Of a stretch of DNA of 64,000 bases, positions 3,414 to 54,929 are shown in pieces. The notes below the pieces were generated by a model that was not told the origin of the DNA, ran no database searches, and saw only the letters and a program-made list of their open reading frames with translations. Within the stretch, counting starts at the first letter, position 1; each line of letters begins with the position of its first letter. This stretch comes from Patescibacteria group bacterium. GTDB taxonomy: Bacteria; Patescibacteriota; Patescibacteriia; Buchananbacterales; UBA6539. The translations under genes and the position numbers were made by a program. Where the stretch lies: the NCBI GenBank assembly GCA_041649675.1, contig JBAZMQ010000001.1:253-64252 (forward strand), read 5' to 3'.

Positions 3414-4583
3414 ATGTCTAGCCAAAAAATCTATTTTGATCATTCGGCAACAACGCCCGTTGATCGTGAAGTCTTAAAAGCGATGACACCATTTTTTACT
3501 GAAGTTTTTGGCAATGCTTCTTCGATTCACGCTTTTGGTCAGCAAGCAATTAAAGCGGTTGATGATTCAAGGGAAAAAATCGCGGATTTTTTGGGTTGTA
3601 AAACTAATGAAGTAATATTTACTTCTGGTGCCAGCGAGAGTGATAATATTGTAATTTTAGGTTTGGCTAAACCCAGGCAGCATATTATTACTTCAAAAAT
3701 TGAGCATCCGGCAATTTTAGAACCTTGTAGGGAAATGGAAAAACAGGGTGTTGAAGTAACTTATTTAGATGTTAACAAGAAAGGATTAGTTGAGCTAGAA
3801 TCGGTTAAAAAAGCGATTAAGGAAAACACAAAGCTAATTTCAATAATGTATGTTAATAACGAAATTGGTACGATTCAACCGATCAGTGAGATTGGGAAGT
3901 TGATAAAAAAAGAAAACCGAGAACGGAAATCAGAAAACAGAATTTATTTTCATACCGATGCGGTCCAGGCTACTAATTATTGCGAAATGAATGTTGATCA
4001 GCTTGGTGTTGATTTGGTTTCAATCTCTGGTCATAAGATTTATGCCCCCAAAGGGATTGGAGCACTGTATAAAAGAGCCGGTACGCCGATTAGACCAATT
4101 CAGTTTGGTGGTCACCAAGAATATGGTATTCGGCCCGGAACCTTGAATGTGCCTGGTATTGTTGGTCTAGGTAAAGCAGTTGAATTAATTTCCCAAAGCA
4201 AAAATGATAACGAAAAAATAAAAAAATTACGCGATAAATTAATTGCTGGAATTTTGGCTAAAATTCCTAACGCTATAGTTAATGGTGATTTAGAGAAACG
4301 AGTGCCAGCTAATGCTCATTTTAGTTTTAAAGGTGTAGAAGGGGAAAGTATGCTTTTATTGTTAGACCAGGAAGGCATTGCGGTTTCAACTGGCTCGGCT
4401 TGCTCTTCGGGTTCGTTAGAACCATCTGCCGTTTTAATGGCCTTAGGCATGGATCCACTTTTAGCCCATGGCAGTTTAAGAATAACTTTGGGGAAGTTTA
4501 ATACGGAAAAAGAAATTGATTGTCTGTTGGAAAAATTACCTCCAATTATTGAAAAATTAAGAAAAATTTCGCCAATAAAATAG
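3414..4583 (+). CDS. iscS: cysteine desulfurase (class V aminotransferase)
   Basis: SSIHAFGQQA, SGHKIYAPKGIGALY (PLP-Lys), C-terminal SGSACSS active-site Cys loop; 389 aa. Contains a short insertion KKENRERKSENR at 3912-3942. Confidence 0.93.
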   Translation: MSSQKIYFDHSATTPVDREVLKAMTPFFTEVFGNASSIHAFGQQAIKAVDDSREKIADFLGCKTNEVIFTSGASESDNIVILGLAKPRQHIITSKIEHPAILEPCREMEKQGVEVTYLDVNKKGLVELESVKKAIKENTKLISIMYVNNEIGTIQPISEIGKLIKKENRERKSENRIYFHTDAVQATNYCEMNVDQLGVDLVSISGHKIYAPKGIGALYKRAGTPIRPIQFGGHQEYGIRPGTLNVPGIVGLGKAVELISQSKNDNEKIKKLRDKLIAGILAKIPNAIVNGDLEKRVPANAHFSFKGVEGESMLLLLDQEGIAVSTGSACSSGSLEPSAVLMALGMDPLLAHGSLRITLGKFNTEKEIDCLLEKLPPIIEKLRKISPIK

Positions 4584-4592
4584 TTAGGGTAA

Positions 4593-4628
4593 TAAAAAAA
4601 AGACAGGTCAGCGCCTGTCTTTTTTTTA
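4593..4628. terminator. bidirectional rho-independent terminator
   Basis: A-run, agacagg-tcagcg-cctgtct hairpin (4601-4620), T-run; lies between convergent iscS and the pilus-operon end. Confidence 0.6.
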
Positions 4629-4635
4629 TTACTAA

Positions 4636-4968
4636 TCAATCAATGCCTTGAATCGTTTGTTTATTTGGTAAGTTGGCGGTGAATGGATTTTTAATCTCAG
4701 CCCAGTTGATTTTGTCGGGGGCGGAAAATTTTTTATCTAGCGCTGTCAGCGCTGTTCTGAATTTTTCAACGTTAATTGTGTAGGGTGATACCTCGGCTCG
4801 TAAAACAACAATTTCTTGTGATTGAGTGATAGTTTGGTAGAAATTTTTGTATAGAAATAAACTCAGAAATCCAATACTAATCAAAAATGTTATTAGAATA
4901 ACAATCGTAATAATTCTAGCTGAAGCCAGGAGTTTAATTATTCTTTGTATTAATTGCTTTATTTTCAT
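4636..4968 (-). CDS. hypothetical single-pass membrane protein (last gene of the pilus operon)
   Basis: 110 aa, N-terminal TM helix; operon context with pilO. Confidence 0.5.
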   Translation of the reverse strand: MKIKQLIQRIIKLLASARIITIVILITFLISIGFLSLFLYKNFYQTITQSQEIVVLRAEVSPYTINVEKFRTALTALDKKFSAPDKINWAEIKNPFTANLPNKQTIQGID

Positions 4969-7126: not shown

Positions 7127-8530
7127 TTATCGGTTCATTTCTTCCCAGGAAATGAATTCATACTTACCGCTGGTCGGAAAATATGGTGGCGGGGCGTAGA
7201 GAGTATTAGGATCGTAAACATAAGCACGATTTGCGTAGCCACTTGAGCCACTAGACATATAGGGCGTTAAATTACTGATTGTTGTGCCATATAGCGTAAA
7301 TTGGTTTCTTGATACAGTGGAACCGCATTCATAGCTTGAGCCATAATCAGGTCGATAGCGTTTGCCATTTTTAGCGATTAAAACAGCATCAATTTCTAAA
7401 TTATCAGCGCTGTATAATCCGATAACCACATTATTCTGAGCAATAAGGCCAATAACATCGTGTCCATCCTTGTTGGTGTATAACAAATTGTTATTTAGAA
7501 AAATATCGGCTGTGCCAGTATCAAGCGGTTCTTTGGCCGCAACAACTGTTGCTCGGCTATGGTCTATTGTCCCGTCAATCCAGACATTATCTTTGACAAA
7601 AATCATGCCATTTTCGGGAATCGTTGTGGTTTGCCAATCAGTTTTGTAATTGCCGATGCCGCCAGTTGGTTGATTGTTACAGTCTGACGTCTTAGTTTCT
7701 ACTGTGCGATAGCGGAAAGTATTATTAGTTTGAAATTGGAGGTGGTAACCTTGGTAGCCTGAAGCGGGTAGAAAAAATCCACTTGATGTAGCAGCCGCTT
7801 CCATCGTACTTAGATTTTGAGTAAAACCGGTAAAATCGACTGCTGGTACGGGAAATTCTTTGCCGGCCAAAAACACTTGACTTTCATGAGATTGACTAGT
7901 CCAAACTCCGTCGTGCCAAGAACCGCTATACCAATATTGTTGTAAGGCGCTGCTGATTATATTATGAGCGACACCATCAAATCTGACACCACCATTAGAA
8001 ATCACTGGACCATAAGTTTCAGAACCAGTTCCGTAATCAATATTGCTATTGACTACCGTAGTAAAACGGGCAAGGGAAGGGACGCCAAGTCGAACAGCCA
8101 CAATCTTTTTAGTGTTAGGGTAGTTTACTGTCCAGCCAGTTGATTTAATTTGAACTACAGTTGAGCCTGGGTAGTCTGGGTCGGGCGGAGTGATTGTTAA
8201 GCTGAAATAACCCAATAAATCACCACTTGGATCATGGTATTCATGAACATAAGGGCCGCAAGGATAGCAACTACTTTGGCCGGTGCCGTCGGTATAATCT
8301 TGCAAAGCATGAGCTAAATGCCAACGGTAGTAATTTGCGCCAGCTTCGGCAATTTGTTGAGCCAGACTCTGAGCTTCCCATTGGCGGCTTAGGCGCCTTT
8401 GTTGATTAACTAAACCAATCAGACCACTGGCAATTATTAAAAAGACACCCATAAAAACCAATGTTGTTATCAGTATATCACCTTTTTGCTGGTAAACCAA
8501 GATATTTTTTTTATAAATTTGGTGGTTCAT
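7127..8530 (-). CDS. PilX-like N-terminal TM protein (putative minor pilin or tip-associated protein)
   Basis: 467 aa; the N-terminal hydrophobic helix GDILITTLVFMGVFLIIASGLIGLV followed by QQRRLSRQWEAQ resembles the PilX_N domain. Confidence 0.45.
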   Translation of the reverse strand: MNHQIYKKNILVYQQKGDILITTLVFMGVFLIIASGLIGLVNQQRRLSRQWEAQSLAQQIAEAGANYYRWHLAHALQDYTDGTGQSSCYPCGPYVHEYHDPSGDLLGYFSLTITPPDPDYPGSTVVQIKSTGWTVNYPNTKKIVAVRLGVPSLARFTTVVNSNIDYGTGSETYGPVISNGGVRFDGVAHNIISSALQQYWYSGSWHDGVWTSQSHESQVFLAGKEFPVPAVDFTGFTQNLSTMEAAATSSGFFLPASGYQGYHLQFQTNNTFRYRTVETKTSDCNNQPTGGIGNYKTDWQTTTIPENGMIFVKDNVWIDGTIDHSRATVVAAKEPLDTGTADIFLNNNLLYTNKDGHDVIGLIAQNNVVIGLYSADNLEIDAVLIAKNGKRYRPDYGSSYECGSTVSRNQFTLYGTTISNLTPYMSSGSSGYANRAYVYDPNTLYAPPPYFPTSGKYEFISWEEMNR

Positions 8531-9192: not shown

Positions 9193-12100
9193 TTATTCTA
9201 AATTTAGATTTATAGTTATGTTATCTCCTGGATTCAGTGAAACTGGTAACGGCGGTTCAGTACTAATAATTGTGTATCGTGAACCAGCTTGAAGCGAAAT
9301 TGAATAAGTGTCCCACTCCAAATTATTTAAAAGTAGTTGCCCACTAGCATTAGTAGAAAGATTTTGACTGTATTTAAAAATGTCAGGATTGGTGCCAACT
9401 TTTTTAGCCCCAGTTATAACTAAAGGTACATTGGCAGTATTGGTGTAAGCATTTGGATCAGCAGCATATTCAGCGGCAATAATATCATAATTGCCGCTTC
9501 GATTATCTTGCCAGGTAACAACCAAGTTTCCGGCTTGATTAATTATGATACCTGGATTTTTTTGATCGCCAGTAGTATTAGCATTAATTCTAATGTCGTT
9601 TGGCCATTGAGTAGTGCCAGCTGAATTTATTTTTTGGGTGTAGATATCAGTATCACCATTTCTAATGTCTTGCCAAACTACAAAGATGTTGCCAGAACTA
9701 TCCAAAGCGGCTCTGGGGTTTTCTTGGACACTACCAGAATGGGAGCTAATTGCCTGATCGCCATTTGGCCATAAGACATTGCCAGCAGAGTCATATTTTT
9801 GGCCATAAATATCATTATCGCCATTACGGTCATCTTCCCAAAAAATATAAATATTATTCTCATTATCAATTTTAACCACCGGATTATTTTGGTTGCCGCC
9901 GGCATTAGTGTTTATTCGAATATCATTTGGCCAAACAATATTACCGTTTGGATCAATTTTTTGGATAAATATATCATAATTATCAATCTGGTAATCTTCC
10001 CAAACAACATAAATATTTTCATCCTGATCAATTGCTAAATTAACTGATTGAGAATAACCGCCACCACTGGTGGTATGGGAATAGCCAATGTCAATTTGAT
10101 CCAAATTGATTTGTTGGCTGCCGTTACTCAGCAGGAAGGCTTTAAAGATAATTTTCCCTCGGGTGGTTGAAAAGGTTTTAATATGGTCATTAATGACACT
10201 GGCGGTATTGTAGTTTGGGCCACCCGCTTGGGCCCAATTAGTTCCGTTCCAGTATTTCCAAGTAACGCCATCGTCAGATAGTTGATAGTAAATTTCACCA
10301 CCATTTTTTGTCGCTGTTTCTGTGAAAGAATCCCAAGAAACTAAATTGCTGACAGTTAAAGAGCTAAGAGGTAAAACGCTTGGGCCGTTAGCTGGATAGC
10401 CTGCTCCTGATTCAGTCCATTGACAACCAGTTTGATTTTGGCAACTTAACTGAGTCAAGAAGTTAGAACAGCTGATCGTAGTGCCACTACATGGCCCTTG
10501 AATATCCCAATTACAACTGGTTTGGGTGCAGATTGGGCCAGTAGTTTGATTTTGGCATAAACAAGTGCCAGAACAAGTACCTTGTTGGGAACCCCAACTG
10601 CAGCTGGCCGCTTGGCAGGTAGACTGGCTAGAAATTTGGTTACAGTTACAGCCGGGGTTATCATAGCAAAACCAAAAAAACCAAGAGCAACCGCTGGTAG
10701 CCTTGCAAGTATTTTTACTGCCAATTGAGCCACAAGAACAATTGCCACTGCAACTTTGAGCGCCTGCTTGCCAACTGCAACTGGGCGCAGAAATACATTG
10801 GTTTTGGTCAGTAATTGTTGAGCACCCGCAGGTGTCACCGCTGCATGGTCCTTCTGCATCCCAATTGCAGGTACTTTGGTTGGTGCAGGATGTGGCACTG
10901 GAAAAAGTGGCACAATCACTGGCTGTGCCATTGCAAATTTTTATTGGCACTAATTGGGCAACGCCAGTAACAATTTTGACATTTGTCGTGCCGTCGCAAT
11001 TGCCACCGTCGCATTGGTAGTCAGCTAAGTTATTAAAGTCCCAATTGAAAGAATCTGTTGCTTTGTACATTGACGAAGAATTAGCATTGACTTTTAATTC
11101 ACTAGCCCAAATCATTTGACCATTAACATCAAATTTCTGTAAATAAATATCAGATTTGCCATTGCCAGCCCTTTCGTCTTTAAAAGCAATATATTCGGCC
11201 GTACTTGAAGCATTTAAAGCAATCTTAGGATAAATTTGATCAGCGGAAGTGCTGTCAGTATTAACTTTTATCGGCTGACTAAATAAACCATTGCCAGCGG
11301 TGTCGTATTTGTTAAAATAAATATCTTGGTTATTATTTTTATCATCATGCCAAGTGATGTAAATATTATTATTTTTATCAATTGCTAAATCCGCTCCGCC
11401 CTGATTATCAGAGCTAGTCATTGCTAAATCGTTGCTCCATTGTTTAGTTTGGGCGGTATATTTTTGGGTATAAATCCGACTGTTGTAATTACGGAAATCT
11501 TGCCAAGCAAAATAATAGTTTTGGTCAGCGCCCAAGGCAATAGCTGGGAAAAATTGGTCGGCGGTACCAACGTCAGTATTCACTGTCCATTCCGAGGGAA
11601 TGGTTTGAGAAAGGGTATGGATATCCAGGGTGGCAATTTTATCAATCGCAAAGCTAATTCTGGTTAGGCTACCTTCAATAACAGTTGCGTCAGGTTTGAT
11701 CGGGTTAGGATTACCAGCTGAATCACTGCAGCTAGTGCCATCAGGATCAATTGAACAAGTTGAATCAGTACTGTAGCCATCTTTGGTGACAATAATGTGG
11801 TAAGAGCTATTGGCTTGCGGTACGCTGGAATAATAGTAGCCTAAAGAGTTGGTTTGATGTGAAGAGTCATTAATTATTGGATTAGTTTGATTGTTAATAA
11901 TATGAATTGAAGCTTGGGAAACGGGTTGGCCATTAGCATCAATAGTATTAATCCACAAAACCCCAGCTCCTTGATTTGCTTCAATACCTTTTGGCGCGAT
12001 TGTGGTTACCGACACTACTTCTTTTGTGCCAAAGTGACCTAACCAAGAAACAGCGATTCTAACTTTCTTATAATCATTACCCAATTCGTCGGTTCCGGCT

Positions 12101-17001: not shown

Positions 17002-18456
17002 ATGGCCAACTTAAAGGGTAAAAAAGTTACAGTAATGGGTTTGGGACTCCACGGCGGCGGAGTCGCTTCTGTTAATTGGTTGGTAAAACATGGCGCTAAA
17101 GTGACCGTGACTGATTTAAAAACGGCTAAGGAATTAAAATTATCACTTAAAAAACTTAATAACTTATCAAAATGTAAACTGGTATTGGGCCGACACCGAG
17201 AGATTGACTTTAGGAATGCTGACATAATCGTGCAAAATCCGGATGTGCCCAAAGAGTCAAAATATTTAAAAATTGCCAAGAAGGCCGGTATTTTGATTGA
17301 AAATGAAGCCAGTCTTTTTTTTAAAAATTGTGCGGCAAAGATTGTTGGGGTAACTGGCACTCGCGGGAAATCAACTACCAGTACTTTGATTTATGAAATA
17401 TTAAATAAATCAGAGATCAGAAATCAGAGATCAGAAATCAGAGATCAGAAATCAGAGATCAGAAATCAGAGATCAGAAATCAGAATCTGGCTGGCTGGTC
17501 AGCCCCAGCAGCCGATGATGGCGATTTTGGATAAGGTTAAAAAAAACGATTTGGTTGTTTTGGAACTTTCTTCCTGGCAGTTGGAAATATTGGGCCAGCA
17601 AAAATTAAGTCCACATGTTGCCATAGTTACCAATATCTATCCGGATCATTTGAATCGCTATTCTTCAATGGCCGGGTATATCACCGCTAAAAAAAATATT
17701 TTTAAATTTCAAAGTAAAAACGATTTTGTAATTTTAAATTTTGATAATACTCAAACCAAAAAGATGGGTCGCGAAGTTTTGAGCCAAAGATTTTGGTTTT
17801 CCAAAAAATATTTAGCTGATCAGAACAGTTGTTTTTTAAAAGGGGATTATATATATTTTCAACAAAATGGCAAAATAAGCAAACTGGTTAATCCAGAAAT
17901 TTCTAAATTAAAGGGTGAGCATAATTTGGAAAATATTTTAGCCGCCAGCGCAGTCGCTGGTATTTTTGGCGCTAAGCCAAAAGATATCCAAAATGGTCTG
18001 AAGAATTTTTTTGGCTTGCCCGGAAGAATTGAATTGATCAGAACAGTTAAAGGTATAAAATATATCAATGATACAACGGCAACTACGCCTGACGGAACAA
18101 TGGCAGCGCTTAAGGCTTTGCCGGCAAAAAAGATAGTTTTAATCGCCGGCGGCACTTCAAAAAATATTCCCGATTTTAAATATCGGGAATTAGCCAAAAT
18201 AATTAGTCAACGATGCAGGGCTGTAGTTTTATTACCTGGTGGCGGCAGTGATCAAATTCTAAAGGTCTTAAGCCGGGTTAACTTTAAACCAGTTGTTTAT
18301 CATACCGCTGACATGGTGCAGGCAGTTACTTTGGCCGCCAGCTTGGCCAAAAACAATGATATTGTTTTGTTGTCGCCAGCTTGTGCTTCTTTTAATATTT
18401 TTATCAATGAGTTTGACCGTGGTGATAAATTTAATCAGGTAGTAGCAAAATTATGA
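17002..18456 (+). CDS. murD: UDP-N-acetylmuramoylalanine--D-glutamate ligase
   Basis: KGKKVTVMGLGLHGGG Rossmann N-terminus, GTRGKSTTSTL P-loop, Mur ligase C-domain. Track start 16981; ATG 17002 (MANLKGKK) fits the MurD N-terminus better. Carries an in-frame heptanucleotide repeat insert. Confidence 0.9.
   Translation: MANLKGKKVTVMGLGLHGGGVASVNWLVKHGAKVTVTDLKTAKELKLSLKKLNNLSKCKLVLGRHREIDFRNADIIVQNPDVPKESKYLKIAKKAGILIENEASLFFKNCAAKIVGVTGTRGKSTTSTLIYEILNKSEIRNQRSEIRDQKSEIRNQRSEIRIWLAGQPQQPMMAILDKVKKNDLVVLELSSWQLEILGQQKLSPHVAIVTNIYPDHLNRYSSMAGYITAKKNIFKFQSKNDFVILNFDNTQTKKMGREVLSQRFWFSKKYLADQNSCFLKGDYIYFQQNGKISKLVNPEISKLKGEHNLENILAASAVAGIFGAKPKDIQNGLKNFFGLPGRIELIRTVKGIKYINDTTATTPDGTMAALKALPAKKIVLIAGGTSKNIPDFKYRELAKIISQRCRAVVLLPGGGSDQILKVLSRVNFKPVVYHTADMVQAVTLAASLAKNNDIVLLSPACASFNIFINEFDRGDKFNQVVAKL
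17411..17487 (+). repeat. tandem heptanucleotide repeat (CAGAGAT/CAGAAAT, about 11 units) inside murD
   Basis: cagagatcagaaat repeated; translates in frame as SEIRNQR SEIRDQK SEIRNQR SEIR, inserted after the P-loop. Confidence 0.9.
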
Positions 18457-26639: not shown

Positions 26640-26667
26640 AAATATTATAATAAATTTATAAAATAAT

Positions 26668-27135
26668 ATGAATAATTTTAATAGAATATTTGGTTCGGGG
26701 CCGATAGGATTACTTATAAGCTTGGTATTATTATTTTTTGCATTTTATCTAAAAGATTTATTTGACACTCCAAAAATATTTATTGCCCAAGATTTTACAC
26801 GTCTGCTAATTTTTACAACTTTAACTATTGTTAGTGTTGTAATTATTGTTTGGAGTATCGTTTCACTAAACCCAAAATTAAGAGGAAAAACCCTCATAAC
26901 AACAGGAGCTTTAAAATATTTTCGTCATCCCTTATATGCCGCGTTTCTAACTTTTTTTAATTTCGGATTGGCGATTTTATTAAACAATTGGATATTTATT
27001 ATCTGGGCAATCCTTCTCCACCCTATATGGCATTTACTTGTTGCCAAAGAAGAAAAGATGTTAAAAATAACCTTCCCTAATGATTACGAAGATTATTGCA
27101 ATAAGACAGGAAGATTTTTCCCTAAATTATTTTAA
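26668..27135 (+). CDS. isoprenylcysteine carboxyl methyltransferase (ICMT/PEMT) family membrane protein
   Basis: TTGALKYFRHPLYAAFL matches the ICMT family G.Y...RHP.Y motif; 155 aa, 4 TM. Confidence 0.6.
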   Translation: MNNFNRIFGSGPIGLLISLVLLFFAFYLKDLFDTPKIFIAQDFTRLLIFTTLTIVSVVIIVWSIVSLNPKLRGKTLITTGALKYFRHPLYAAFLTFFNFGLAILLNNWIFIIWAILLHPIWHLLVAKEEKMLKITFPNDYEDYCNKTGRFFPKLF

Positions 27136-27329
27136 AATTTAATATATTATTAAAACGTTGCTCGTCTGCCGAGTTTACGAAAGACAAAGTCGCAGATTCA
27201 GCAGACGAGCAGGCGAGAAAAATCGATTGGGCAAAAGCTCCCCAGTCTCCTACTAACCCCTGCGGTTAACCATAGAAATATAAATAGTGTAATAGAGACA
27301 AAATTTAGGAGAAACTAATTAATATAGTT

Positions 27330-27436
27330 CCTCTCTCCGTTCTCGGAGAGAGGACAGGAGTGAGGCAACAAACTCCGTAACCTCACCCGGTCTCTTGGCT
27401 TCGCTTAAGGACCACCCTCTCCGTCTTCGGAGAGGG
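27330..27436. repeat. GC-rich hairpin repeat cluster (copies H1 and H2 plus gtaacctcaccc box)
   Basis: cctctctccg-ttct-cggagagagg (27330-27353); gtgagg...cctcac; gtaacctcaccc (27378-27389); ccctctccg-tctt-cggagaggg (27415-27436). Related copies at 29603-29626 and 30007-30043. Confidence 0.5.
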
Positions 27437-27477
27437 AAGATAATAAAGGTATAAGCAGTGCCATGGAAAGTAGAACT

Positions 27478-27966
27478 ATGAAAATAACTTTTATCCAAAT
27501 TGGCGGAACTATTGATAAAGAATATCCCAGATTAACTAAAGGATATGCCTTTGAAATAGGTGAGCCAGCGGTCAAAAGGATTTTAGAGAAGGTAAATCCT
27601 GGATTTGAGTATGAAATTATTTCTTTACTGCAAAAAGACAGCCTGGATCTCACTGAGGCAGACCGACAAAAAATTCTTGAGACTGGCAAAAGTATTTCTA
27701 ACGATAAGATTATTATGACTCATGGTACTGATACAATGATTGAGACTGCAAACAAGCTAAGTGAAATAAAGGATAAAACTATTGTAATCACGGGCGCCAT
27801 GAGACCGGAGAAATTTTCTGATTCCGATGCTATGTTTAATGTCGGTGCGGCGGTTATTGCTTTGCAAACATTGCCTCACGGCGTCTATATCGTTATGAAC
27901 GGAAAAGTTTATAGTTATAATAAGGTTAAAAGAGATACGGAAACCGGCCAATTTGTTGAAATTTAA
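27478..27966 (+). CDS. L-asparaginase N-terminal domain protein (short, 163 aa)
   Basis: MKITFIQIGGTI (TGGTIA-like) and HGTDTM motifs of the asparaginase/GatD N-domain; no C-terminal domain. Track start 27463; ATG 27478 fits the family N-terminus. Confidence 0.7.
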   Translation: MKITFIQIGGTIDKEYPRLTKGYAFEIGEPAVKRILEKVNPGFEYEIISLLQKDSLDLTEADRQKILETGKSISNDKIIMTHGTDTMIETANKLSEIKDKTIVITGAMRPEKFSDSDAMFNVGAAVIALQTLPHGVYIVMNGKVYSYNKVKRDTETGQFVEI

Positions 27967-28041
27967 TTTTTTAGTGGTGAAGGGGTAGTATATTCGTCTG
28001 AATATGTTAAAATTTAAATAGTTTGAATTAACAATAAATTT

Positions 28042-28908
28042 ATGTTTGAAAGACATCAAAAACAATTTAGAGCCGAGCCGCAGGGAGCCGAAACTGACAG
28101 TCTTAAGGATATTGAGGAAATTGAAGAAGGTGAAACTTCTGAAACTGAAGATATTAGCGTGCCAAAATCAGAAGCTCAAGAACCGCGCCAAGAATCAGTT
28201 GAAACCGTAGCTGAGCTTTTGGTTTCTTGGGCTAAAGATTACGAAGAGGTTCAGGATGAAGGAGCTAAAAGAGAGTTGGCTTACAAAATTTTAAAAATGG
28301 AAATGGCTTTAGGCACTGCCAAACTTAGTGCTGATAAAGTAAAAATTAGGAAAGCTGAGAATGGAACATTGGGACTTTTTGATCCCGAAAGTGGGGAAAT
28401 TGCCATTACTGAAGAAGGTCTTGAATTGCCGCCCCAGCATTTTGCCGATGTTTTTGTTCATGAGTCAGCCCATGCCGGCAAGCTAACCGGACATTCAATT
28501 ATGGATGAAGGGATGGCTGAGTGGTTTACCATTCATCGTTTGCCAAATGCCATGCAAGGAATTTATGTTCAAGAGCGTCAAAGGGCTATAAATACTTTTG
28601 GCGCCGACGCCATGGCTAAGGCAGCTGAAAAATATGATTACCACAGACCCACCAGGTTAGCTGAATTGTATTTGGAAACTGAGTTGGAGGATAGATGGAA
28701 CTTGGGTTTAAAAAGGAAAGTAAGCGCCAAATCAGGCAAAGAAGATAAAACTTTGGCCAAAGCCGCGGCTGGTGAATTAAAATTGGTTGATAATCTTTTT
28801 AAAAAAGGAGTGCCGGACTTATGGCATTCTCTTAAAGAAGTTGATTCTGATTTTTTTCAGGCCGTTGGTTTAAAAATATTAAAGCGTTTAAATAAGCAGG
28901 AAGCTTAA
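28042..28908 (+). CDS. hypothetical acidic protein with HExxH motif (possible metallopeptidase-like)
   Basis: 288 aa; acidic N-terminal region; VHESAHAG HExxH motif; no other recognisable domain. Confidence 0.45.
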   Translation: MFERHQKQFRAEPQGAETDSLKDIEEIEEGETSETEDISVPKSEAQEPRQESVETVAELLVSWAKDYEEVQDEGAKRELAYKILKMEMALGTAKLSADKVKIRKAENGTLGLFDPESGEIAITEEGLELPPQHFADVFVHESAHAGKLTGHSIMDEGMAEWFTIHRLPNAMQGIYVQERQRAINTFGADAMAKAAEKYDYHRPTRLAELYLETELEDRWNLGLKRKVSAKSGKEDKTLAKAAAGELKLVDNLFKKGVPDLWHSLKEVDSDFFQAVGLKILKRLNKQEA

Positions 28909-28923
28909 TATACATCTTCAAGT

Positions 28924-29595
28924 ATGGAGACAAAAGACAAAATCCGTACTTTGGCAAAAAAAATTTGGGATTACCATTTATTAAATCAGAAATTGGAAAA
29001 AGCTGATTGTCTTTTGGTTTTAGGCAGCAATGATTTGAGGGTGGCTCAGAGGGCAGCCCAATTATTTTTAGACGGTTTTGCGCCTTACATTGTTTTTTCC
29101 GGCACCGGTTTTGGCCATAAAGATGATTTACTTTCAACCAGCTGGTCTGAATGGGGCAAAGCCGAAGCCGAAGTTTTTGCTGATGCGGCCATAGAGTTAG
29201 GCGTACCCAAGGATAAAATTATTATTGAGAAAGAATCGCAAAACACCGGTCAAAACATTTTGTTTACCAAAAAATTGTTAAATAGTCTTGACCTAAATCC
29301 AAAAAAAATAATTTTGGTCCAAAAATCATATATGGAACGCCGGGCTTTTGCCACGATTAAAAAGTTTTGGCCAGAGATTGAAGTAATTGTTACTTCACCG
29401 CCAATTTCTTTTGACAATTACCCAAATGATCAAATTTCTGAAGAAAAATTAATTAATCTTTTAGTTGGGGATTTACAGCGGATTAAATTGTATCCGCAAA
29501 AAGGTTTTCAAATTCCGCAAGAAATTCCCGCTGATGTTTGGCAGGCCTATGAGGATTTGGTAGCGGCTGGTTATAATCAACATTTAGTAAATTAA
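28924..29595 (+). CDS. YdcF/ElyC/SanA (DUF218) family protein
   Basis: CLLVLGSNDLRVAQRAAQLF...IVFSGTG and QNTGQNI motifs typical of DUF218. Confidence 0.7.
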   Translation: METKDKIRTLAKKIWDYHLLNQKLEKADCLLVLGSNDLRVAQRAAQLFLDGFAPYIVFSGTGFGHKDDLLSTSWSEWGKAEAEVFADAAIELGVPKDKIIIEKESQNTGQNILFTKKLLNSLDLNPKKIILVQKSYMERRAFATIKKFWPEIEVIVTSPPISFDNYPNDQISEEKLINLLVGDLQRIKLYPQKGFQIPQEIPADVWQAYEDLVAAGYNQHLVN

Positions 29596-29602
29596 AGAAG
29601 TT

Positions 29603-29626
29603 CCCTTCTCCCATTTGGGAGAAGGG
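29603..29626. repeat. GC-rich hairpin repeat copy H3
   Basis: cccttctccc-attt-gggagaaggg perfect 10-bp stem, followed by ggaaggggatgagg; directly upstream of the DUF559 gene. Confidence 0.4.
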
Positions 29627-29647
29627 GAAGGGGATGAGGTAGCGGAC

Positions 29648-29986
29648 ATGAATACCAACATTTCTAGAATATTACGTAAAAACCAAACTCCTCACGAAAG
29701 AAAACTTTGGGGTTGTCTTAGAAATCGTGAATTGCAGAATTTAAAATTCAGGCGTCAATATAAAATTGGCAAATATGTTGTTGATTTTTACTGTCCAACC
29801 AAAAAATTAGTAATTGAGCTTGATGGCGGTTGGCACAACGAAGAAAAGAATATAATTAAGGACGAGGAAAGAAGCAGATACCTCGAGAGTCAAGGTCATA
29901 GAGTCTTGAGGCTTTGGAATAATGATATTGATAATAATTTAGAAGGTGTGATTGAAGAAATTATAAAATTTTGTGGTTTAAATTAG
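29648..29986 (+). CDS. DUF559 endonuclease-domain protein (Vsr-like restriction-endonuclease fold)
   Basis: RKNQTPHERKLW...VVDFYCPTKKLVIELDGGWH...HRVLRLWNNDI, the DUF559 signature. Track start 29615 lies inside hairpin H3; ATG 29648 preferred. Confidence 0.75.
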   Translation: MNTNISRILRKNQTPHERKLWGCLRNRELQNLKFRRQYKIGKYVVDFYCPTKKLVIELDGGWHNEEKNIIKDEERSRYLESQGHRVLRLWNNDIDNNLEGVIEEIIKFCGLN

Positions 29987-30006
29987 TTTAAGTAATTATT
30001 GAGTTT

Positions 30007-30043
30007 GTAACCTCACCCCAACCCTCTCCGTGATCGGAGAGGG
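30007..30043. repeat. GC-rich hairpin repeat copy H4 with gtaacctcaccc box
   Basis: gtaacctcacccc-aa-ccctctccg-tgat-cggagaggg; same box plus stem as 27378-27436 but lacking the 26-nt internal segment. Confidence 0.5.
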
Positions 30044-30075
30044 AGGGCTATGGAAAAATTAAATATAAAAAAATT

Positions 30076-30348
30076 ATGGAAAATTTAGAACAAAGAATTC
30101 AAAAAATTGAAGCAAGAAATTTAAGCGTTCAAAAAGATAAGGCTTGGGAAACCAGCTGGACCAGGCGAATATTACTGGCAATATTTTCTTATTTGGCAAT
30201 CGGGGTTTATCTTTGGGCTATTAAAATTCCGCATGCCTGGTTAAATGCCATTGTGCCGGCCGTGGCCTTTATGATTCAAACTTTGACTTTGCCGTTTTTT
30301 AAAAAACTTTGGTTAAATTTTAAGGGTAATGGACAACAAAAATTTTGA
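30076..30348 (+). CDS. hypothetical small membrane protein
   Basis: 90 aa, two predicted TM helices. Confidence 0.5.
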   Translation: MENLEQRIQKIEARNLSVQKDKAWETSWTRRILLAIFSYLAIGVYLWAIKIPHAWLNAIVPAVAFMIQTLTLPFFKKLWLNFKGNGQQKF

Positions 30349-31149: not shown

Positions 31150-32061
31150 ATGCCTGAGCTACCTGAAGTTGAAACTTTACGCCGAGAGTTAAATTCAATA
31201 ATCAAAGGTAAGGTAATCAAATCTGCGGTTTGCAATTGGCCAAAGATGGTTAAGCCATTGACGGTTTTGGAATTTCAAAATCAAATTAAGAATAAAAAAA
31301 TTACAGACATAAAAAGAAAAGCTAAAGTTTTAATTTTAGATCTTGCCGGTCCGTTGTCGCTTTTGATCCATCTTAAGCTAACTGGACAGTTGATTTACAG
31401 AGATAAGAAAACAGAGAACAGAAATCAGAGGCTTGTTGTTGGGGGGCATCCGCTGCCGCTTCGTTCCAGCGAGACAAATCCTCAAAAAGGTGGTAGCAAT
31501 GGTTTACCGAATAAATTTACTCATTTGACTTTGAATTTTAGCGATGGTTCAAAACTATTTTTTAATGATTTGCGGAAATTCGGTTGGGCAAAGCTAGTTG
31601 ATGATTCAGGTTTGGCTGAAGTGATTGAAAAACATGGACCCGAACCTTTAACTAAGGAGTTTACTTTCAAATATTTTTTAGCGATATTAAAAAAGTATCC
31701 GAACCGAAAAATTAAACAGATTCTATTGGATCAAAATTTAATTTCCGGTTTGGGCAATATTTATGCTGATGAAAGTTGTTTTTGGGCTAAAGTCAGGCCA
31801 ACCAGAGTTAATAAGACTTTAAAACCCGAAGAGATCAAAAAATTATTTTATTGTATTCCAAAGATTTTAAAGTTTGCCATTGGCAAAAAGGGGACATCGG
31901 CTAATACTTATGTTCGTTTGTCTGGCCAGCCTGGCGGCATGGAGCCGTATTTAAAAGTTTACGGCAGAAAAGGGGAGAAATGCCAGCGTTGCGGCGGGGT
32001 AGTGGAAAAAATAAAATTAAACGGCCGCGGGACGCATTTTTGTCCAAAGTGTCAGAAATAA
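31150..32061 (+). CDS. mutM: formamidopyrimidine-DNA glycosylase (Fpg/MutM)
   Basis: MPELPEVETLRREL catalytic N-terminus, H2TH, C-terminal zinc finger CQRCGG...CPKC. Track start 31141 is a TTG. Contains an insertion relative to canonical Fpg around 31407-31431 (KKTENRNQR...). Confidence 0.92.
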   Translation: MPELPEVETLRRELNSIIKGKVIKSAVCNWPKMVKPLTVLEFQNQIKNKKITDIKRKAKVLILDLAGPLSLLIHLKLTGQLIYRDKKTENRNQRLVVGGHPLPLRSSETNPQKGGSNGLPNKFTHLTLNFSDGSKLFFNDLRKFGWAKLVDDSGLAEVIEKHGPEPLTKEFTFKYFLAILKKYPNRKIKQILLDQNLISGLGNIYADESCFWAKVRPTRVNKTLKPEEIKKLFYCIPKILKFAIGKKGTSANTYVRLSGQPGGMEPYLKVYGRKGEKCQRCGGVVEKIKLNGRGTHFCPKCQK

Positions 32062-50310: not shown

Positions 50311-52050
50311 ATGGCATTCTACTCACCAAAAAAAATAGAGCCGGCAAAAAGTAATTTGAATATTAGAATGATATTTTTGCTGCTGGTTATTTTTTTTGTT
50401 GGTGTAGTAATTATTTTTCGGTTATTTAGCTTGCAAATATTGCAGCATTCTTTTTATAATACCTTAGCTTCGCAAGAGCATGAAACTTACAAAGATTTGC
50501 TGGCGGAAAGAGGCTCAATTTATACTAAAGAAAAAGATCAGTTATATCCTTTGGTCACTAACCGCGGCTATTATTTAATTTATGCTGAACCAATCAGAAT
50601 TGAAAAACCTAATGAGGTAACTAATGCCATTGCATCAATATTAAATTTTACTGATTCTGAAAAGCAGGAGTTACTTGCTCGGCTAAGTAAAACTAATGAT
50701 GTCTATGAACCGATTAAACATAAAATTACTTTGGCCCAAGTTGATCAAATTAAGAATTTAAAATTAGCGGGCATTGGTTTTGCACCAGAAAGTTATCGTT
50801 TTTATCCGGAAAAGGGCATTGGTGGACATGTTTTTGGGTTTATTGGTTTTAAAGATGACAAAAAAGTTGGCGAGTATGGTTTGGAAGGCTATTTTGATCA
50901 GGAGTTATCCGGTCAGCCGGGTTTGATTAAAGCGGCTAAAGACGCTTTGGGCTCAATTATCACTGTTGGTCAGCGATCAGTCAAAAAAGCCGAAAATGGC
51001 TCGGACTTAGTTTTAACCATTGACCGGCAAATTCAATTCGTGGCTTGCCAGAAGCTAAAAGAATTTGCCGATAAATTCAAAGCCGATGGCGGTAGCGTTG
51101 TGATTATGGCGCCAACTGGTGAAATATTAGCTATGTGTGGTTTGCCGGATTTTGATCCTGACAATTATCAAGACACTGAAGATATTAACGCTTTTAACAA
51201 CCCAGTAATTTTTTCAGCTTACGAGCCGGGCTCAGTTTTTAAAGGTATTACCATGGCAGCCGGTTTAGATTCGGGTGCGGTTGATATCAATACCACCTAT
51301 GAAGATACCGGTGAAGTTAAAATTGGCGGATTTACAATTAAAAATTCTGACTTGAAAGCGCACGGTAAAACGACGATGGTTGGGATTTTGGAAAAATCTT
51401 TAAATACAGGCGCAATTTTTGTTGAGCAGAAAGTTGGTAAAACAACTTTTGAAAATTATGTCAGGAATTTTGGCTTCGGAAAGCTGACTGGTATAACTTT
51501 AGAAAAGGAAGTGCCGGGTGATCTTTCTGCCTTAAGCAAGCCAGGTGAAATTTACGGCATGACCGCTTCGTATGGCCAAGGAATCATGGTAACGCCAATC
51601 CAATTAGTAGCCGCTTATGGTGCAATTGCCAATCAGGGCAAATTATATAAACCATACATTGTTTCAGAAATTATAAATCCTAATGGCCAAAAACAAACAT
51701 TTGGCCCTCAATCGGTCAGGCAAGTAATTTCACCCAAGGCCGCTTCATTGCTGACAGGAATGCTAACTTCGGTGGTTGAACATGGTTATGGCCAGTTAGC
51801 TGGTAATAAAGGCTACTATTTTGCCGGTAAGACCGGAACGGCTCAAGTGGCTTCGCCTGGCGGTGGTTATGGCAGTAAAACCAACCATACTTTTGTCGGG
51901 TTTGGCCCAATTTCTAAGCCAGCTTTCATTATGGTCACTGTCCTTAATAATCCCAAAGGCGTTAAGTTTGCCGAAAGTAGCGCTACGCCACTTTTTGGTC
52001 AGATTGCCCAATTTTTGTTAAACTATTATCAGATTAAGCCAGATTATTAA
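50311..52050 (+). CDS. ftsI: penicillin-binding protein 2 / FtsI (class B PBP transpeptidase)
   Basis: N-terminal TM, PBP dimerisation domain, SVFK (SxxK), SLN (SxN) and KTGTAQ (KTG) motifs; 579 aa. Confidence 0.9.
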   Translation: MAFYSPKKIEPAKSNLNIRMIFLLLVIFFVGVVIIFRLFSLQILQHSFYNTLASQEHETYKDLLAERGSIYTKEKDQLYPLVTNRGYYLIYAEPIRIEKPNEVTNAIASILNFTDSEKQELLARLSKTNDVYEPIKHKITLAQVDQIKNLKLAGIGFAPESYRFYPEKGIGGHVFGFIGFKDDKKVGEYGLEGYFDQELSGQPGLIKAAKDALGSIITVGQRSVKKAENGSDLVLTIDRQIQFVACQKLKEFADKFKADGGSVVIMAPTGEILAMCGLPDFDPDNYQDTEDINAFNNPVIFSAYEPGSVFKGITMAAGLDSGAVDINTTYEDTGEVKIGGFTIKNSDLKAHGKTTMVGILEKSLNTGAIFVEQKVGKTTFENYVRNFGFGKLTGITLEKEVPGDLSALSKPGEIYGMTASYGQGIMVTPIQLVAAYGAIANQGKLYKPYIVSEIINPNGQKQTFGPQSVRQVISPKAASLLTGMLTSVVEHGYGQLAGNKGYYFAGKTGTAQVASPGGGYGSKTNHTFVGFGPISKPAFIMVTVLNNPKGVKFAESSATPLFGQIAQFLLNYYQIKPDY

Positions 52051-52128
52051 GAATTAAGAATTTAGAATTACGAATTATGTTTGACTCTTAATTCTAAATT
52101 CATAATTCTTAATTCATAATCTCAATTC
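52051..52128. repeat. AT-rich inverted repeat family B, copy 3
   Basis: gaattaagaatttagaattacgaatt...aattcataattcttaattcataat. Confidence 0.45.
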
Positions 52129-53433
52129 ATGAAAAATCAGCTAAAAAAAATATTAGAAAAAACTCTCCGGGTTTTTGCAATTAAGATTTTAAAAAAATAT
52201 CAGCCAGAAATCGTAGCCATTACTGGTAGTGTTGGCAAAACTTCAACCAAAGAGGCAATCTTTACCGTTTTGTCCTCATCTTTTAATGTTAGACAAAATA
52301 TAAAAAATTATAATAACGAGATTGGCATTCCCTTAACAATTATCAACAGTCAGGCAGCGGGTAAATCAATCATTGGCTGGCTGGCAGTTTTTTTAAAAGC
52401 AATAAAATTGATAATTAGTACTGACAAAAATTATCCAAAAATATTAATTTTAGAAATGGGCGCTGACCATGCAGGTGATATTAAATATTTAACTAAATTC
52501 ATTCCCGTTAAAGTTGGCGTGATTACGGCTGTGGCGCCGGTCCATTTAGAATATTTTAAAACCCTTGAAGAAGTGGCCAAAGAGAAAAGCAATTTAATTA
52601 AATCATTATCAAAATCTGGTTGGGCGGTTTTGAATTACGATGACAAGTTAGTCAATGAAATGAAAAAGAATACGGCGGCTTTGGTTGTTTCTTTTGGTTT
52701 AATTCCGCAAGCTGACATCTTTGCCAGTGAAATTGCCATTAGCCATGATGTTGATTATAAAGACGTAACAACGATTCAGGGGATTAGTTTTAAATTGAAT
52801 TATAAAGGCAATGTCGTGCCAATACTTTTACCCCAGGTTTTGGGGCAGCACTTAGTTTATTCAGCCTTGGCGGCAATTGCCGTTGGCATTATTTATAAAA
52901 TCAATTTGCACAAGATTATTGAAAGCCTAAAGACTTACCAGCCGCCAAAAGGTCGGATGCATATTATACCTGGTATTAAACACACTTTGATTATTGATGA
53001 TAGTTATAATTCATCACCTTTAGCTGCCCAAAAAGCGCTGCATCAGCTTGGACAAATTAATTTAGATAAACATCATAAGAAATATGCTGTCCTGGGTGAT
53101 ATGCTGGAACTGGGCAGTTATACGGAGCAAGCACATCAAGAAGTGGGTCAGGCAGTTTATAATTACGGGGTTGACTACTTAGTCACGGTTGGCGAAGTTT
53201 CGCGCGATATGGTTCGCGGTGCGATTGCCGCTGGCATGAACAAAGATCACTGTTTTAATTTCAAAAATAGCGCTGAAGCTGGATTATTTTTGCAGCAGCG
53301 CATTGAACAAGGAGATTTGATTTTAGTTAAAGGTTCTCAAGGAACCAGGATGGAAAAAGTGGTTAAGGAATTAATGGCTGAACCACAAAAAGCTGAAGAG
53401 TTACTGGTCAGACAGGGCAAAGAGTGGCAGTAA
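52129..53433 (+). CDS. murF: UDP-N-acetylmuramoyl-tripeptide--D-alanyl-D-alanine ligase
   Basis: ITGSVGKTSTKE P-loop and NYNNEIGIPLT motif characteristic of MurF; 434 aa. MurE cannot be fully excluded. Confidence 0.8.
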   Translation: MKNQLKKILEKTLRVFAIKILKKYQPEIVAITGSVGKTSTKEAIFTVLSSSFNVRQNIKNYNNEIGIPLTIINSQAAGKSIIGWLAVFLKAIKLIISTDKNYPKILILEMGADHAGDIKYLTKFIPVKVGVITAVAPVHLEYFKTLEEVAKEKSNLIKSLSKSGWAVLNYDDKLVNEMKKNTAALVVSFGLIPQADIFASEIAISHDVDYKDVTTIQGISFKLNYKGNVVPILLPQVLGQHLVYSALAAIAVGIIYKINLHKIIESLKTYQPPKGRMHIIPGIKHTLIIDDSYNSSPLAAQKALHQLGQINLDKHHKKYAVLGDMLELGSYTEQAHQEVGQAVYNYGVDYLVTVGEVSRDMVRGAIAAGMNKDHCFNFKNSAEAGLFLQQRIEQGDLILVKGSQGTRMEKVVKELMAEPQKAEELLVRQGKEWQ

Positions 53434-53507: not shown

Positions 53508-54929
53508 ATGGAAAAACTTTTTTTGTATAATACTCTAGCGCGGAAAAAAGAGGAATTTAAGCCACTTAAAGATAAAGTGGTGACTTTTTATCAGTGCGGG
53601 CCAACGGTTTACTGGACCCAGCATATCGGTAATTTGCGGGCCATGGTGATGGCCGATTTGATTGAAAGGTCATTGGAATATTTAGGCTACAAAGTTAAAT
53701 TTGTTAGGAATTATACTGATGTTGGCCATTTAACTTCGGACGAGGACGAAGGTGAAGATAAAATTGAAAAAGGCGCTAAGCGTGAAGGACTTAAGCCTTT
53801 TGAGATTGCCAAAAAATATATTAAAATTTTTGAACAAGACGTTAAAGCTTTAGCTGTTTTGGAACCTTGGAAAAAACCAAAGGCAACTGAGTATATCTCA
53901 GAAATGCAAAAAATGGTCAAAGAGTTATTAGTCAAAGGTTATGCTTACGCAACTGACTTGGCGATTTATTTTGACGTGACTAAAGCCAAGGATTATACAA
54001 AACTTTCCGGTCAGGATTTAGAAAAAAACATCACTGACGCGGGTAAAGGTGAAATTAGTGATATAAATAAAAAACATCCAGCTGATTTCGCTTTGTGGTT
54101 TTTCAAAGCTGGGGTTCACCAAAATGCTTTGCAAACCTGGCCCAGTCCTTTTGAGTCAAAGTTGGTCGCTAAGGGTCAGGGTTTTCCGGGTTGGCATATT
54201 GAATGTTCGGCCATGGCCAAAAAATTATTAGGCGATACGCTTGATCTTCACATGGGCGGAGTTGAACATATTCCGGTGCACCATACCAATGAAATTGCCC
54301 AGTCCGAAGCGGCCAATGGGGTCAAATTCGTCAATTATTGGCTCCATAACGAGCATTTAACCGTTGATGGGGGCAAGATGGCCAAATCAGCCGGCACCAG
54401 CTATTCTTTGCAAGATATTAAAGACAAAGGTTTTGACCCAATGGCTTTGCGTTATTTATTTTTGCAGGCACATTATCGCTCCAAGCAAAATTTTACTTGG
54501 AAATCTTTAGCTGCCGCCCAAATCTCATTAAATGGTATACGAGATAGAATTTTAGATTATAAAAAAAGAAATGAGCAGGGAAAAATTAATGATGAATTTA
54601 GGGATAAATTTACGGAAGCATTAAAAGATGATTTTAATGTTCCTAAAGCATTAGCCATTACTTGGGATCTTTTAAAATCTGGTTTGGGTAATAATGATAA
54701 GCTTGCTACCTTTTTAGATTTTAATGAAGTTCTGGGTTTAAAAGTAGATTTAGGTAAAAATAAGGAGATAAAGATTCCTGAAAAAGTAATTGATTTGGCG
54801 GAAAAAAGATTGCAAGCCAGGGTGGCCAAAGATTGGCAGAAATCCGATGAAATTAGAAAGGAGATTGAAGCCCAAGGTTATTTAGTTGAGGATACTAAAG
54901 ACGGATATATTGTTAAGGATAAGAAATAA
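53508..54929 (+). CDS. cysS: cysteine--tRNA ligase
   Basis: LYNTLARKKEEFKP...YQCGPTVY..HIGN (HIGH) and KMAKSAGT (KMSKS); 473 aa. Confidence 0.93.
   Translation: MEKLFLYNTLARKKEEFKPLKDKVVTFYQCGPTVYWTQHIGNLRAMVMADLIERSLEYLGYKVKFVRNYTDVGHLTSDEDEGEDKIEKGAKREGLKPFEIAKKYIKIFEQDVKALAVLEPWKKPKATEYISEMQKMVKELLVKGYAYATDLAIYFDVTKAKDYTKLSGQDLEKNITDAGKGEISDINKKHPADFALWFFKAGVHQNALQTWPSPFESKLVAKGQGFPGWHIECSAMAKKLLGDTLDLHMGGVEHIPVHHTNEIAQSEAANGVKFVNYWLHNEHLTVDGGKMAKSAGTSYSLQDIKDKGFDPMALRYLFLQAHYRSKQNFTWKSLAAAQISLNGIRDRILDYKKRNEQGKINDEFRDKFTEALKDDFNVPKALAITWDLLKSGLGNNDKLATFLDFNEVLGLKVDLGKNKEIKIPEKVIDLAEKRLQARVAKDWQKSDEIRKEIEAQGYLVEDTKDGYIVKDKK

Follow-up and report, generated by a model that had tools for sequence, protein, structure and literature searches.

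BoxC-type repeat units recur beside DUF559 nuclease genes in a Patescibacteria genome and across bacterial phyla: a possible repeat-nuclease partnership

The subject of this analysis is a set of short GC-rich hairpins that surround a gene for a small nuclease of the DUF559 family. They lie in a stretch of 64 kb (38% G+C) from a genome of the Patescibacteria, or candidate phyla radiation (CPR); this whole stretch is called the window below, and its closest syntenic relative is a Candidatus Buchananbacteria metagenome-assembled genome. The window holds exactly four GC-rich pyrimidine/purine hairpins, spread over 2.7 kb: H1, CCTCTCTCCG-TTCT-CGGAGAGAGG at 27330-27353; H2, CCCTCTCCG-TCTT-CGGAGAGGG at 27415-27436; H3, CCCTTCTCCC-ATTT-GGGAGAAGGG at 29603-29626; and H4, CCCTCTCCG-TGAT-CGGAGAGGG at 30022-30043. 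All four had been reported in a preliminary description of this DNA and are present as written there, as are an extra 26-nt segment (27389-27414) and a 12-nt box, GTAACCTCACCC, which precedes H2 and H4 at 27377-27388 and 30007-30018 and occurs nowhere else in the window (chance expectation 0.13). When all 64 kb were searched for hairpins with perfect stems (8 bp or longer, 60% GC or more), H1 to H4 and one unrelated hairpin at 19717 were the only ones to turn up, and the pattern CCCTCTCCGNNNNCGGAGAGGG, with up to two mismatches allowed, matched three times in the window and never in 100 shuffles. Neighbouring genes, as called with Pfam, encode an ICMT-like protein, an asparaginase N-domain, a protein with a weak metallopeptidase-like match (HExxH), a DUF218 protein and the DUF559 protein, in agreement with the earlier calls for the last four; the DUF559 gene itself sits between the DUF218 gene and a gene for a 90-amino-acid membrane protein.

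The DUF559 gene, the only copy in the window, occupies 29648-29986 on the forward strand and encodes a YcjD-like, Vsr-fold nuclease of the PD-(D/E)xK type with 112 amino acids (PF04480, 6e-38). The protein scores 104 bits against NCBIfam PRK09767 (YcjD), matches the solved DUF559 structure PDB 3HRL (E 1e-20) and the PADLOC HEase model (7e-9), and aligns over residues 37-108 with the catalytic domain of the homing endonuclease I-Bth0305I (3R3P; E 2e-6). Residues D46, E57, D59, H63 and D72 are invariant among 38 homologues, the catalytic motif is intact, and 633 homologues were found at E<1e-5. Fold and catalytic residues are shared with Vsr, but the protein reaches only 19 bits with the Vsr model TIGR00632, whose cut-off is 97.85, and no cytosine (Dcm-type) methyltransferase gene adjoins DUF559 in the window. 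The overlap noted earlier between H3 and an upstream extension of this gene does exist, in an open reading frame (ORF) that begins at a TTG and spans 29615-29986; since homologues begin at the ATG at 29648, the extension represents read-through of the G-rich repeat. In public databases, too, DUF559 gene calls often start or end inside the repeats, which produces artificial GEG-, PLP- or SPL-rich extensions (P0021, P0062, P0071, P0073, P0118), and the public call for the window's own gene (P0001) has 123 rather than 112 amino acids through inclusion of the 29615-29647 region.

The box that precedes H2 and H4 also occurs, as its complement, on the 3' sides of H1 and H3, and all four hairpins are thus copies of one asymmetric type of unit, in the orientations + - + -. 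Each unit is laid out as a pyrimidine arm, a loop, a purine arm, a spacer of 3-4 nt (or an inserted stem-loop) and a purine box of the GGGTGAGG type that mirrors the purine arm; the stems are perfect, 9-10 bp long, with pyrimidine 5' arms, purine 3' arms and 4-nt loops. U1 (27330-27369, forward strand) consists of arm CCTCTCTCCG (27330-27339), TTCT, arm CGGAGAGAGG (27344-27353), ACA, box GGAGTGAGG (27357-27365) and CAAC, and U2 (27377-27436, reverse strand) of GTAA, box CCTCACCC (27381-27388), the 26-nt insert (27389-27414) and the H2 hairpin (27415-27436). U3 (29603-29643, forward strand) is made up of the H3 hairpin (29603-29626), GAAG, box GGGATGAGG (29631-29639) and TAGC, and U4 (30007-30043, reverse strand) of GTAA, box CCTCACCC (30011-30018), CAA and the H4 hairpin (30022-30043). 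The units pair up in inverted fashion, U1 with U2 and U3 with U4, the boxes of each pair pointing at each other; U1/U2 is without a gene, while U3/U4 encloses DUF559, whose ATG lies 8 nt past the U3 box and whose end lies 20 nt before the U4 extension. The 7 nt between the extended boxes of U1 and U2 (AAACTCC, 27370-27376) hold the position that the gene has in U3/U4. The GAGG at 29636-29639, within the U3 box and 8 nt ahead of the ATG, could serve as a ribosome-binding site.

The mirror relation is complete in the window. Compared with the reversed purine arm, and counting G*G, A*A and T*A as matches, the box agrees at 9/9 positions in U1, 8/8 in U2, 9/9 in U3 and 8/8 in U4; three stem variants occur (GGAGAGAGG, GGGAGAAGGG and GGAGAGGG), and the box is altered in step with each, down to an extra A peculiar to the U3 stem. 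A strict detector that requires both a perfect pyrimidine/purine hairpin and a mirror box finds exactly U1 to U4 in the window and nothing in shuffled sequence. In U2 the 26-nt insert takes the place of the 3-nt spacer and folds as a bulged stem-loop of its own, which is accounted for by the habit of some lineages of swapping the spacer for a GC-rich stem-loop: inserts at the same position occur in locus L082 (21 nt), in L084, in Bradyrhizobium-type loci and in others. In ViennaRNA folds, which model the hairpin and not Hoogsteen pairing, U1 as DNA reaches -12.7 kcal/mol (z -4.5), and the U1/U2 pair (27326-27440) forms four stems at -31.9 kcal/mol (z -5.3).

Several simpler identities were considered for the hairpins. 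Intrinsic terminators are ruled out, in keeping with the preliminary description, as none of H1 to H4 is followed 3' by a T-run on the coding (forward) strand; in a terminator scan H3 alone passes, and only when read on the non-coding strand. CRISPR, also dismissed earlier, is ruled out by the four copies, their irregular spacing and their inverted orientations. A G-quadruplex was rejected as the conserved feature in the window, where U1 has only GG tracts and U2 and U4 have two GGG tracts each, with the mirror relation holding in all four. Rfam 15 yields no match at gathering scores in the whole window and none at E<=1 in 27000-30200; together with the occurrence of units in both orientations relative to transcription, this makes the RNA-processing sites proposed earlier unlikely. 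The same intergenic region as U1/U2 also holds one copy of a different inverted repeat, which is not a BoxC-type unit, the class described next. Its 10-bp arms, GCTCGTCTGC (27160-27169) and GCAGACGAGC (27201-27210), had been described before with an end coordinate one base short; with the flanking T/A it has 11 bp and a 31-nt loop (27159-27211; fold z -4.3), and it has neither a T-run nor an Rfam match.

Searching full texts for the two core words turned up Holder et al. (2015; PMC4666352) and, with it, a repeat family already on record. This is the BoxC element of Escherichia coli, rediscovered as the potential intrastrand triplex (PIT) and later named TM or TMECO (Bergler 1992; Hoyne et al. 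2000; PMC4666352). Its published consensus is CCCTCTCCC-loop-GGGAGAGGG-TTA/CCG-GGGTGAGGG (Table 1, PMC4666352). E. coli K-12 carries 23 copies (CCCTCTCCCTTGAGGGAGAGGGTTAGGGTGAGGGT is one), and five of these belong to inverted pairs; the motif is present in more than 260 genomes, its loci are unusually rearranged between strains, and the authors found neither a functional class among neighbouring genes nor a link to mobile elements (PMC4666352). Judged by sequence, the hairpins of the window are almost certainly members of this BoxC/PIT/TM family: U2 and U4 match the core exactly (CCCTCTCC / GGAGAGGG / GGGTGAGG), U1 and U3 are one-step variants, and the geometry of U1/U2 is that of the four convergent BoxC pairs of K-12 (Table 1, PMC4666352). 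Shared features are the three-block architecture, the near-identical core, variable loops on conserved stems, intergenic placement, both orientations and frequent inverted pairs with inward boxes. The window differs from the published cases in being part of a 38%-GC CPR genome with only four copies in 64 kb, in a spacer that can be replaced by a 21-26-nt stem-loop, in a 4-nt extension of the box (GGTGAGG-YWRC) and in a pair that encloses DUF559, published studies naming no associated gene or mobile element. The preliminary description was borne out in proposing a dispersed, REP-like palindromic repeat family, and it missed both the BoxC/PIT family and the third, mirror-symmetric block that defines it.

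That third block bears on structure. Single strands of BoxC type form a very stable purine-motif triplex in vitro, as shown for E. coli units by circular dichroism and nuclear magnetic resonance (PMC4666352). When 246 asymmetric pyrimidine/purine hairpins were picked blind to the box, a mirror copy of the purine arm was the better match to the 3' block in 106 cases and a direct copy in 28, a result that supports a triplex geometry; as single-stranded DNA, a unit could fold into a hairpin plus third strand, that is, a purine-motif intrastrand triplex. Many units from unrelated lineages share a single stem mismatch at one fixed position, with CCCTCGCC opposite GGAGAGGG and hence a G.A pair (or the reciprocal T.C). 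Examples are DUF559 flanks in L003, L045, L056, L069 and L078 and the K-12 units in Table 1 of PMC4666352, where this form, "type A mm", is the commonest in E. coli; the four units of the window are all perfect and lack it. A recurrent hairpin mismatch beside a Vsr-like, mismatch-reading nuclease may be meaningful. A second family of GC-rich hairpins, CCTGCCTGCCG-nTAn-GCAGG(CAGG), also recurs in CPR genomes (L082 at about 3995-4020, L084 at 7343-7365, and L021 about 37 nt downstream of DUF559), and in L084 it is the stem-loop inserted within a BoxC-type unit.

The association of these units with DUF559 extends far beyond the window. Eighty DUF559 loci were assembled from a set in which each GTDB species is represented by one genome; protein similarity (45-57% identity) was the sole criterion, with nine close sequences as the query, after an alignment of 38 proteins had proved too variable and was replaced. 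The loci come from Melainabacteria, Saccharibacteria and other Patescibacteria, Alpha-, Beta- and Gammaproteobacteria, Chloroflexota, Planctomycetota, Omnitrophota, Nitrospirota and Cloacimonadota, with GC contents of 31-73%. In about 60 of them DUF559 has hairpins of this stem family (CCCTCTCC or CCCTCCCC) at its flanks, with the stem sequence conserved across this whole range of host GC and with upstream and downstream loops that are often reverse-complementary to each other; the two flanks align over 33-100 nt when the downstream one is reverse-complemented, with the consensus CCCTCTCC-loop-GGAGAGGG-N3-GGGTGAGGG. The strict detector finds 218 units in the 447 kb of these loci and none in shuffled sequence. 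They crowd around the gene: 145 lie within 150 nt of DUF559 and 34 at more than 500 nt, or about 6 against 0.1 per kb, a roughly 60-fold difference. A unit lies within 200 nt of DUF559 in 62 of the 74 loci (84%) for which both flanks are available, and on both sides in 42; the arrangement with a forward unit upstream and a reverse unit downstream, boxes toward the gene, is found in 38 of all loci. We are therefore confident that the association of the units with DUF559 is specific, and the check that the preliminary description had proposed, for association with other DUF559 copies, came out strongly positive. The repeat itself was already known; what appears to be new is its link to DUF559. 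A literature search, with most subscription journals outside its scope, found no paper that ties the two together; the words "DUF559" and "endonuclease" do not appear in the text of PMC4666352, nor does "endonuclease" in a preprint on the same motif.

One way to account for the flanking units is that they act in the DUF559 transcript, with the 5' hairpin and G-rich box pairing with the 3' C-rich box and hairpin and so controlling translation or stability of the mRNA for a potentially toxic nuclease. The GAGG of the U3 box ahead of the ATG would suit this, as would the complementarity of upstream and downstream boxes in most loci. We regard it as highly improbable, since the majority of units are gene-less pairs or solo copies, units point either way relative to transcription, the composites beside some genes are direct rather than inverted, Rfam offers no match, and the box, being mirror-symmetric, suits a purine-motif triplex, a structure formed by DNA and, according to PMC4666352, not by RNA.

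Another possibility is that the units are structural DNA or RNA elements of the host, such as pause sites, mRNA-stabilising hairpins or hot spots of nucleoid organisation or recombination, and that DUF559 lands or survives at such permissive, unstable spots with no recognition involved. The literature lends this some weight, because BoxC sites are linked to local rearrangement and their E. coli neighbours fall into no functional class (PMC4666352); units also exceed DUF559 genes in number and persist in E. coli genomes without ycjD, and the region downstream of SecA, where U1/U2 lie, differs in all three related genomes compared here. We consider it unlikely all the same. It predicts many kinds of small or mobile genes beside units, yet among 109 ORFs that adjoin units at loci found by searching for the unit first, DUF559 was the sole family to recur across loci. 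It also does not predict units at 84% of DUF559 loci in many phyla, mostly on both sides and in a defined orientation. Further, unit type tracks protein clade and not host GC: unit type and protein similarity correlate with a Mantel r of 0.12, reached in 10 of 2000 permutations, and the nearest protein neighbour has the same unit type in 19 of 51 cases (7.2 +/- 2.9 expected), while unit similarity and host GC similarity correlate at -0.05.

Relatives differ in whether they have the gene and its units; the comparisons that follow are between species-level relatives, not strains. In L082 and L083, whose DUF218 proteins are 78% identical to that of the window, the gene order HExxH-DUF218-[102 nt]-MENLEQRI gene is kept and both U3 and DUF559 are missing. 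The 102-nt spacer holds a solo reverse unit, CAACCTCACCC followed by a 21-nt perfect hairpin insert and CCCTCTCCG-AAAC-CGGAGAGGG, that is orthologous to U4. In L084 and L085 (73%), DUF559 lies at another site, after a pyrophosphatase gene, with a forward unit carrying an insert hairpin upstream and a second unit further upstream. A Moranbacteria-like lineage (L235-L238) has DUF559 between atpG and atpD, flanked by two near-identical direct copies, about 105 nt each, of a unit pair; in its relatives L240 and L241 the atpG-atpD spacer measures 41 nt (AtpG 96% identical) or 1054 nt (92%) and contains neither units nor gene. Units and gene are thus gained and lost together, even within a conserved operon, and the atp operon has units only where it has the gene, a further point against permissive landing spots. 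Between independent loci, too, the homologous block ends at the outer edges of the units, as in L024 (2865-3405) and L040 (2881-3405), which are 70.6% identical there and unrelated in their flanks.

Two separate parts vary between the window and L082: DUF559 together with U3, and the genes that separate SecA from the HExxH gene. The 2.7-kb accessory segment proposed in the preliminary description does not hold up, given that the HExxH and DUF218 genes between the two unit pairs are syntenic in L082. The interval from SecA to the HExxH/DUF218 genes (window 26640-27462, L082 3362-5112, L084 3906-5994) contains wholly different genes in the three relatives: ICMT-like and asparaginase N-domain genes in the window, SEC-C, Maf and a 152-amino-acid ORF in L082, and a methyltransferase and a NUDIX gene in L084. 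In the window this variable spot also houses the gene-less U1/U2. The 1-kb atpG-atpD spacer of L241 holds, at 4540-4640, a long AT-rich palindrome (GTAGAGGTTTAATTTATTAAACC...GGTTTGATAAATCAAACCTCTAC) and a 93-amino-acid reverse ORF partly common to L235, another insertion in that operon spacer.

Taken together, these observations lead us to favour, by a modest degree, a reading in which the DUF559 gene and its units form one selfish cassette whose nuclease would act on the units; that the cassette spreads by homing in particular we hold with less assurance. Under such a model the nuclease would recognise its own type of unit, probably in an extruded or single-stranded state, and nick or cut it; repair would then copy a filled locus into the break, with homology arms provided by the repeated units. 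The outcome would be homing-like spread, and excision or integration by recombination between units would be compatible as well. If an empty pair were broken between its boxes, the inverted architecture would follow; a break within a composite would give the direct-repeat one, and recombination between flanking units would leave solo units such as that of L082; gene-less pairs and solo units would then be empty targets or decay products and would outnumber the genes as REPs do RAYTs. More tentatively, and short of even odds in our judgement, DUF559/YcjD nucleases could be the structure-specific partners of BoxC/PIT repeats, making up a second REP/RAYT-like selfish system, different in mechanism, that would spread by break-induced copying between repeats. 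With the same reserve we suggest that such a DUF559-BoxC system might span the CPR, Melainabacteria, Chloroflexota, Planctomycetota and Proteobacteria including E. coli, with a nuclease that would read the folded hairpin plus third strand. Possible alternatives are a REP/RAYT-like action in trans on the units and a protective, structure-resolving role; chance co-location and an unrelated transposase fit the data poorly.

By established enzymology, a PD-(D/E)xK hydrolytic nuclease of 112 amino acids cannot alone cut and rejoin DNA. A homing-like model is the most economical for this reason, as the enzyme would need only to cut. The same limitation speaks for a rival in which the units are the ends of a miniature inverted-repeat transposable element (MITE) moved by an unrelated transposase or recombinase, with DUF559 carried along as a passenger, for instance as a nuclease of defence or addiction. 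The inverted units at the flanks and the doublets without a gene do resemble a transposon and its MITEs, and a Legionella DUF559 travels next to a transposase (PMC12308824). We nevertheless judge passenger status decidedly unlikely. No transposase or recombinase recurs among the 109 ORFs beside units, no transposase or recombinase lies near the units of the window, there is no target-site duplication, and a random passenger would not be expected to be the same family in Melainabacteria, CPR, Proteobacteria, Chloroflexota and Planctomycetota. A classical transposon with terminal inverted repeats, or a MITE of that kind, was rejected on the absence of a target-site duplication and of any transposase. 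The RAYT-like transposase that the preliminary description had suggested as a partner likewise found no support, either in the Pfam calls of the window or among genes recurring beside units.

A different role for the nuclease would be in host maintenance, resolving unit hairpins or triplexes at replication, so that the gene is protective rather than selfish and its location regulatory or historical. Fold and motif are those of the repair nuclease Vsr, Caulobacter uses a Vsr-like protein with a DUF559 domain in repair (PMC12907096), polymerases are blocked by the units in vitro in work that PMC4666352 cites, and ycjD is stable and vertically inherited in E. coli. Left unexplained are the bracketing of the gene by oriented units, its presence or absence between close relatives, the interruption of the atp operon and the many unit-bearing genomes that lack the gene, and on balance we find this role quite unlikely.

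The selfish-cassette reading has contrary observations to contend with. Some concern the incompleteness of the association: 12 of the 74 loci have no unit, flank geometry is mixed (39 loci clearly favour inverted flanks and 16 long direct repeats, with 26 undecided), and no one simple end structure fits all loci. Seen from the side of the repeat, the association is loose, as it also is between REP and RAYT. A scan of metagenome contigs that started from the unit gave 99 exact units, 47 with enough flank to judge, and DUF559 lay within 300 nt in only three of these 47; units far outnumber DUF559 genes. In favour of the link, K-12 has one of its 23 BoxC copies close to its sole DUF559 gene, ycjD, at a distance of about 170 nt on the downstream side. 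Across 5426 E. coli genomes ycjD is a single-copy gene at one fixed site in 3378, and the sequence of a BoxC pair, tallied separately from ycjD, is present in 4461 at a median of seven places per genome; as genomes with the pair exceed those with the gene, units persist without it.

Others among these contrary observations concern movement. No target-site duplication was found, direct repeats at the borders measuring 1.63 against 1.80 +/- 0.25 in re-paired controls, and near-identical copies at different sites of one genome were not found, so recent mobility is not supported. Candidates for recent copies within single genomes (L016/L080 and L026/L064) proved old or unrelated and were discarded, and protein P0057, present on 11 contigs, always has the same context. 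The two units that flank DUF559 in the window, U3 and U4, have diverged in both stem and loop, and the cassette has the base composition of its own genome, both of which indicate that it is old there. Viral contigs hold 21 distant DUF559 relatives (33-46% identity), mostly without units; being few, distant and mostly unit-less, they give no sign of a phage route.

The proposed system can be set beside two known ones. REP and REPIN repeats reportedly have RAYT transposases as their partners, a relation said to have been described by Nunvar in 2010 and by Bertels and Rainey in 2011. As there, the repeat is short, GC-rich and palindromic, often forms inverted doublets and is far more numerous than its single-gene partner, and the partner gene is flanked by inverted repeats with no target-site duplication. 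The differences lie in the partner, here a Vsr-fold PD-(D/E)xK nuclease and not a Y1 HUH (IS200/IS605-like) transposase, and in the units, which lack a GTAG/CGTC tag, have a third mirror-symmetric block and are low in copy number in the genome of the window. The resemblance is one of way of working, not of family membership.

The second comparison is with homing endonucleases of the EDxHD, or Vsr-like, type, represented by I-Bth0305I, which Taylor and colleagues are said to have reported in 2011. The catalytic domains are homologous, and in both cases a small, selfish-looking gene is present or absent at a fixed site, with occupied and empty alleles of the same site here in the window against L082/L083 and in L235-L238 against L240 and L241. 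Unlike those enzymes, the DUF559 gene is free-standing in a cellular chromosome rather than in an intron, intein or phage, its presumed target is a dispersed repeat rather than a unique conserved gene, and its product has no separate DNA-binding domain, only 112 amino acids. With no Y1 transposase and no intron, intein or phage context, the DUF559-BoxC system is a member neither of the REP/RAYT systems nor of the homing endonuclease genes.

What the link would mean follows from the standing of its two parts. BoxC/PIT/TM has been known since 1992, occurs in hundreds of genomes, forms stable triplexes in vitro and marks unstable loci, and its function, origin and protein partner have remained unassigned; DUF559 is a large family of unknown function with a solved structure and a member, ycjD, in E. 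coli K-12. If the link is specific, it would explain both a repeat orphaned for 30 years and a DUF family. The repeat-gene link already accounts for the spurious GEG- or PLP-rich N- and C-terminal extensions annotated on DUF559 genes. If the proposed partnership is true, it would be a second repeat-protein symbiosis of the REP/RAYT type, built on a different enzyme, and would provide a natural protein that may read non-B DNA, which is directly testable in E. coli.

The window contains further repeats away from this locus. At 52036-52134 and 54923-55021, 2.8 kb apart and inverted, lie AT-rich arrays with a 14-nt period (AGAATTAAGAATTT-like; repeat families D1, I2, I10 and I14), which look like long inverted repeats bracketing a segment. 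A perfect tandem array of about six copies of the 14-nt AAATCAGAGATCAG occupies 17393-17498, with related copies at 31394-31443 in the region of an fpg-like gene (family D3). At 9466-10033 and 11274-11515 lie repeats of families D2, D4 and D7 (period about 162-165 nt, identity 60-72%), which probably represent a repetitive domain array in a large coding region.

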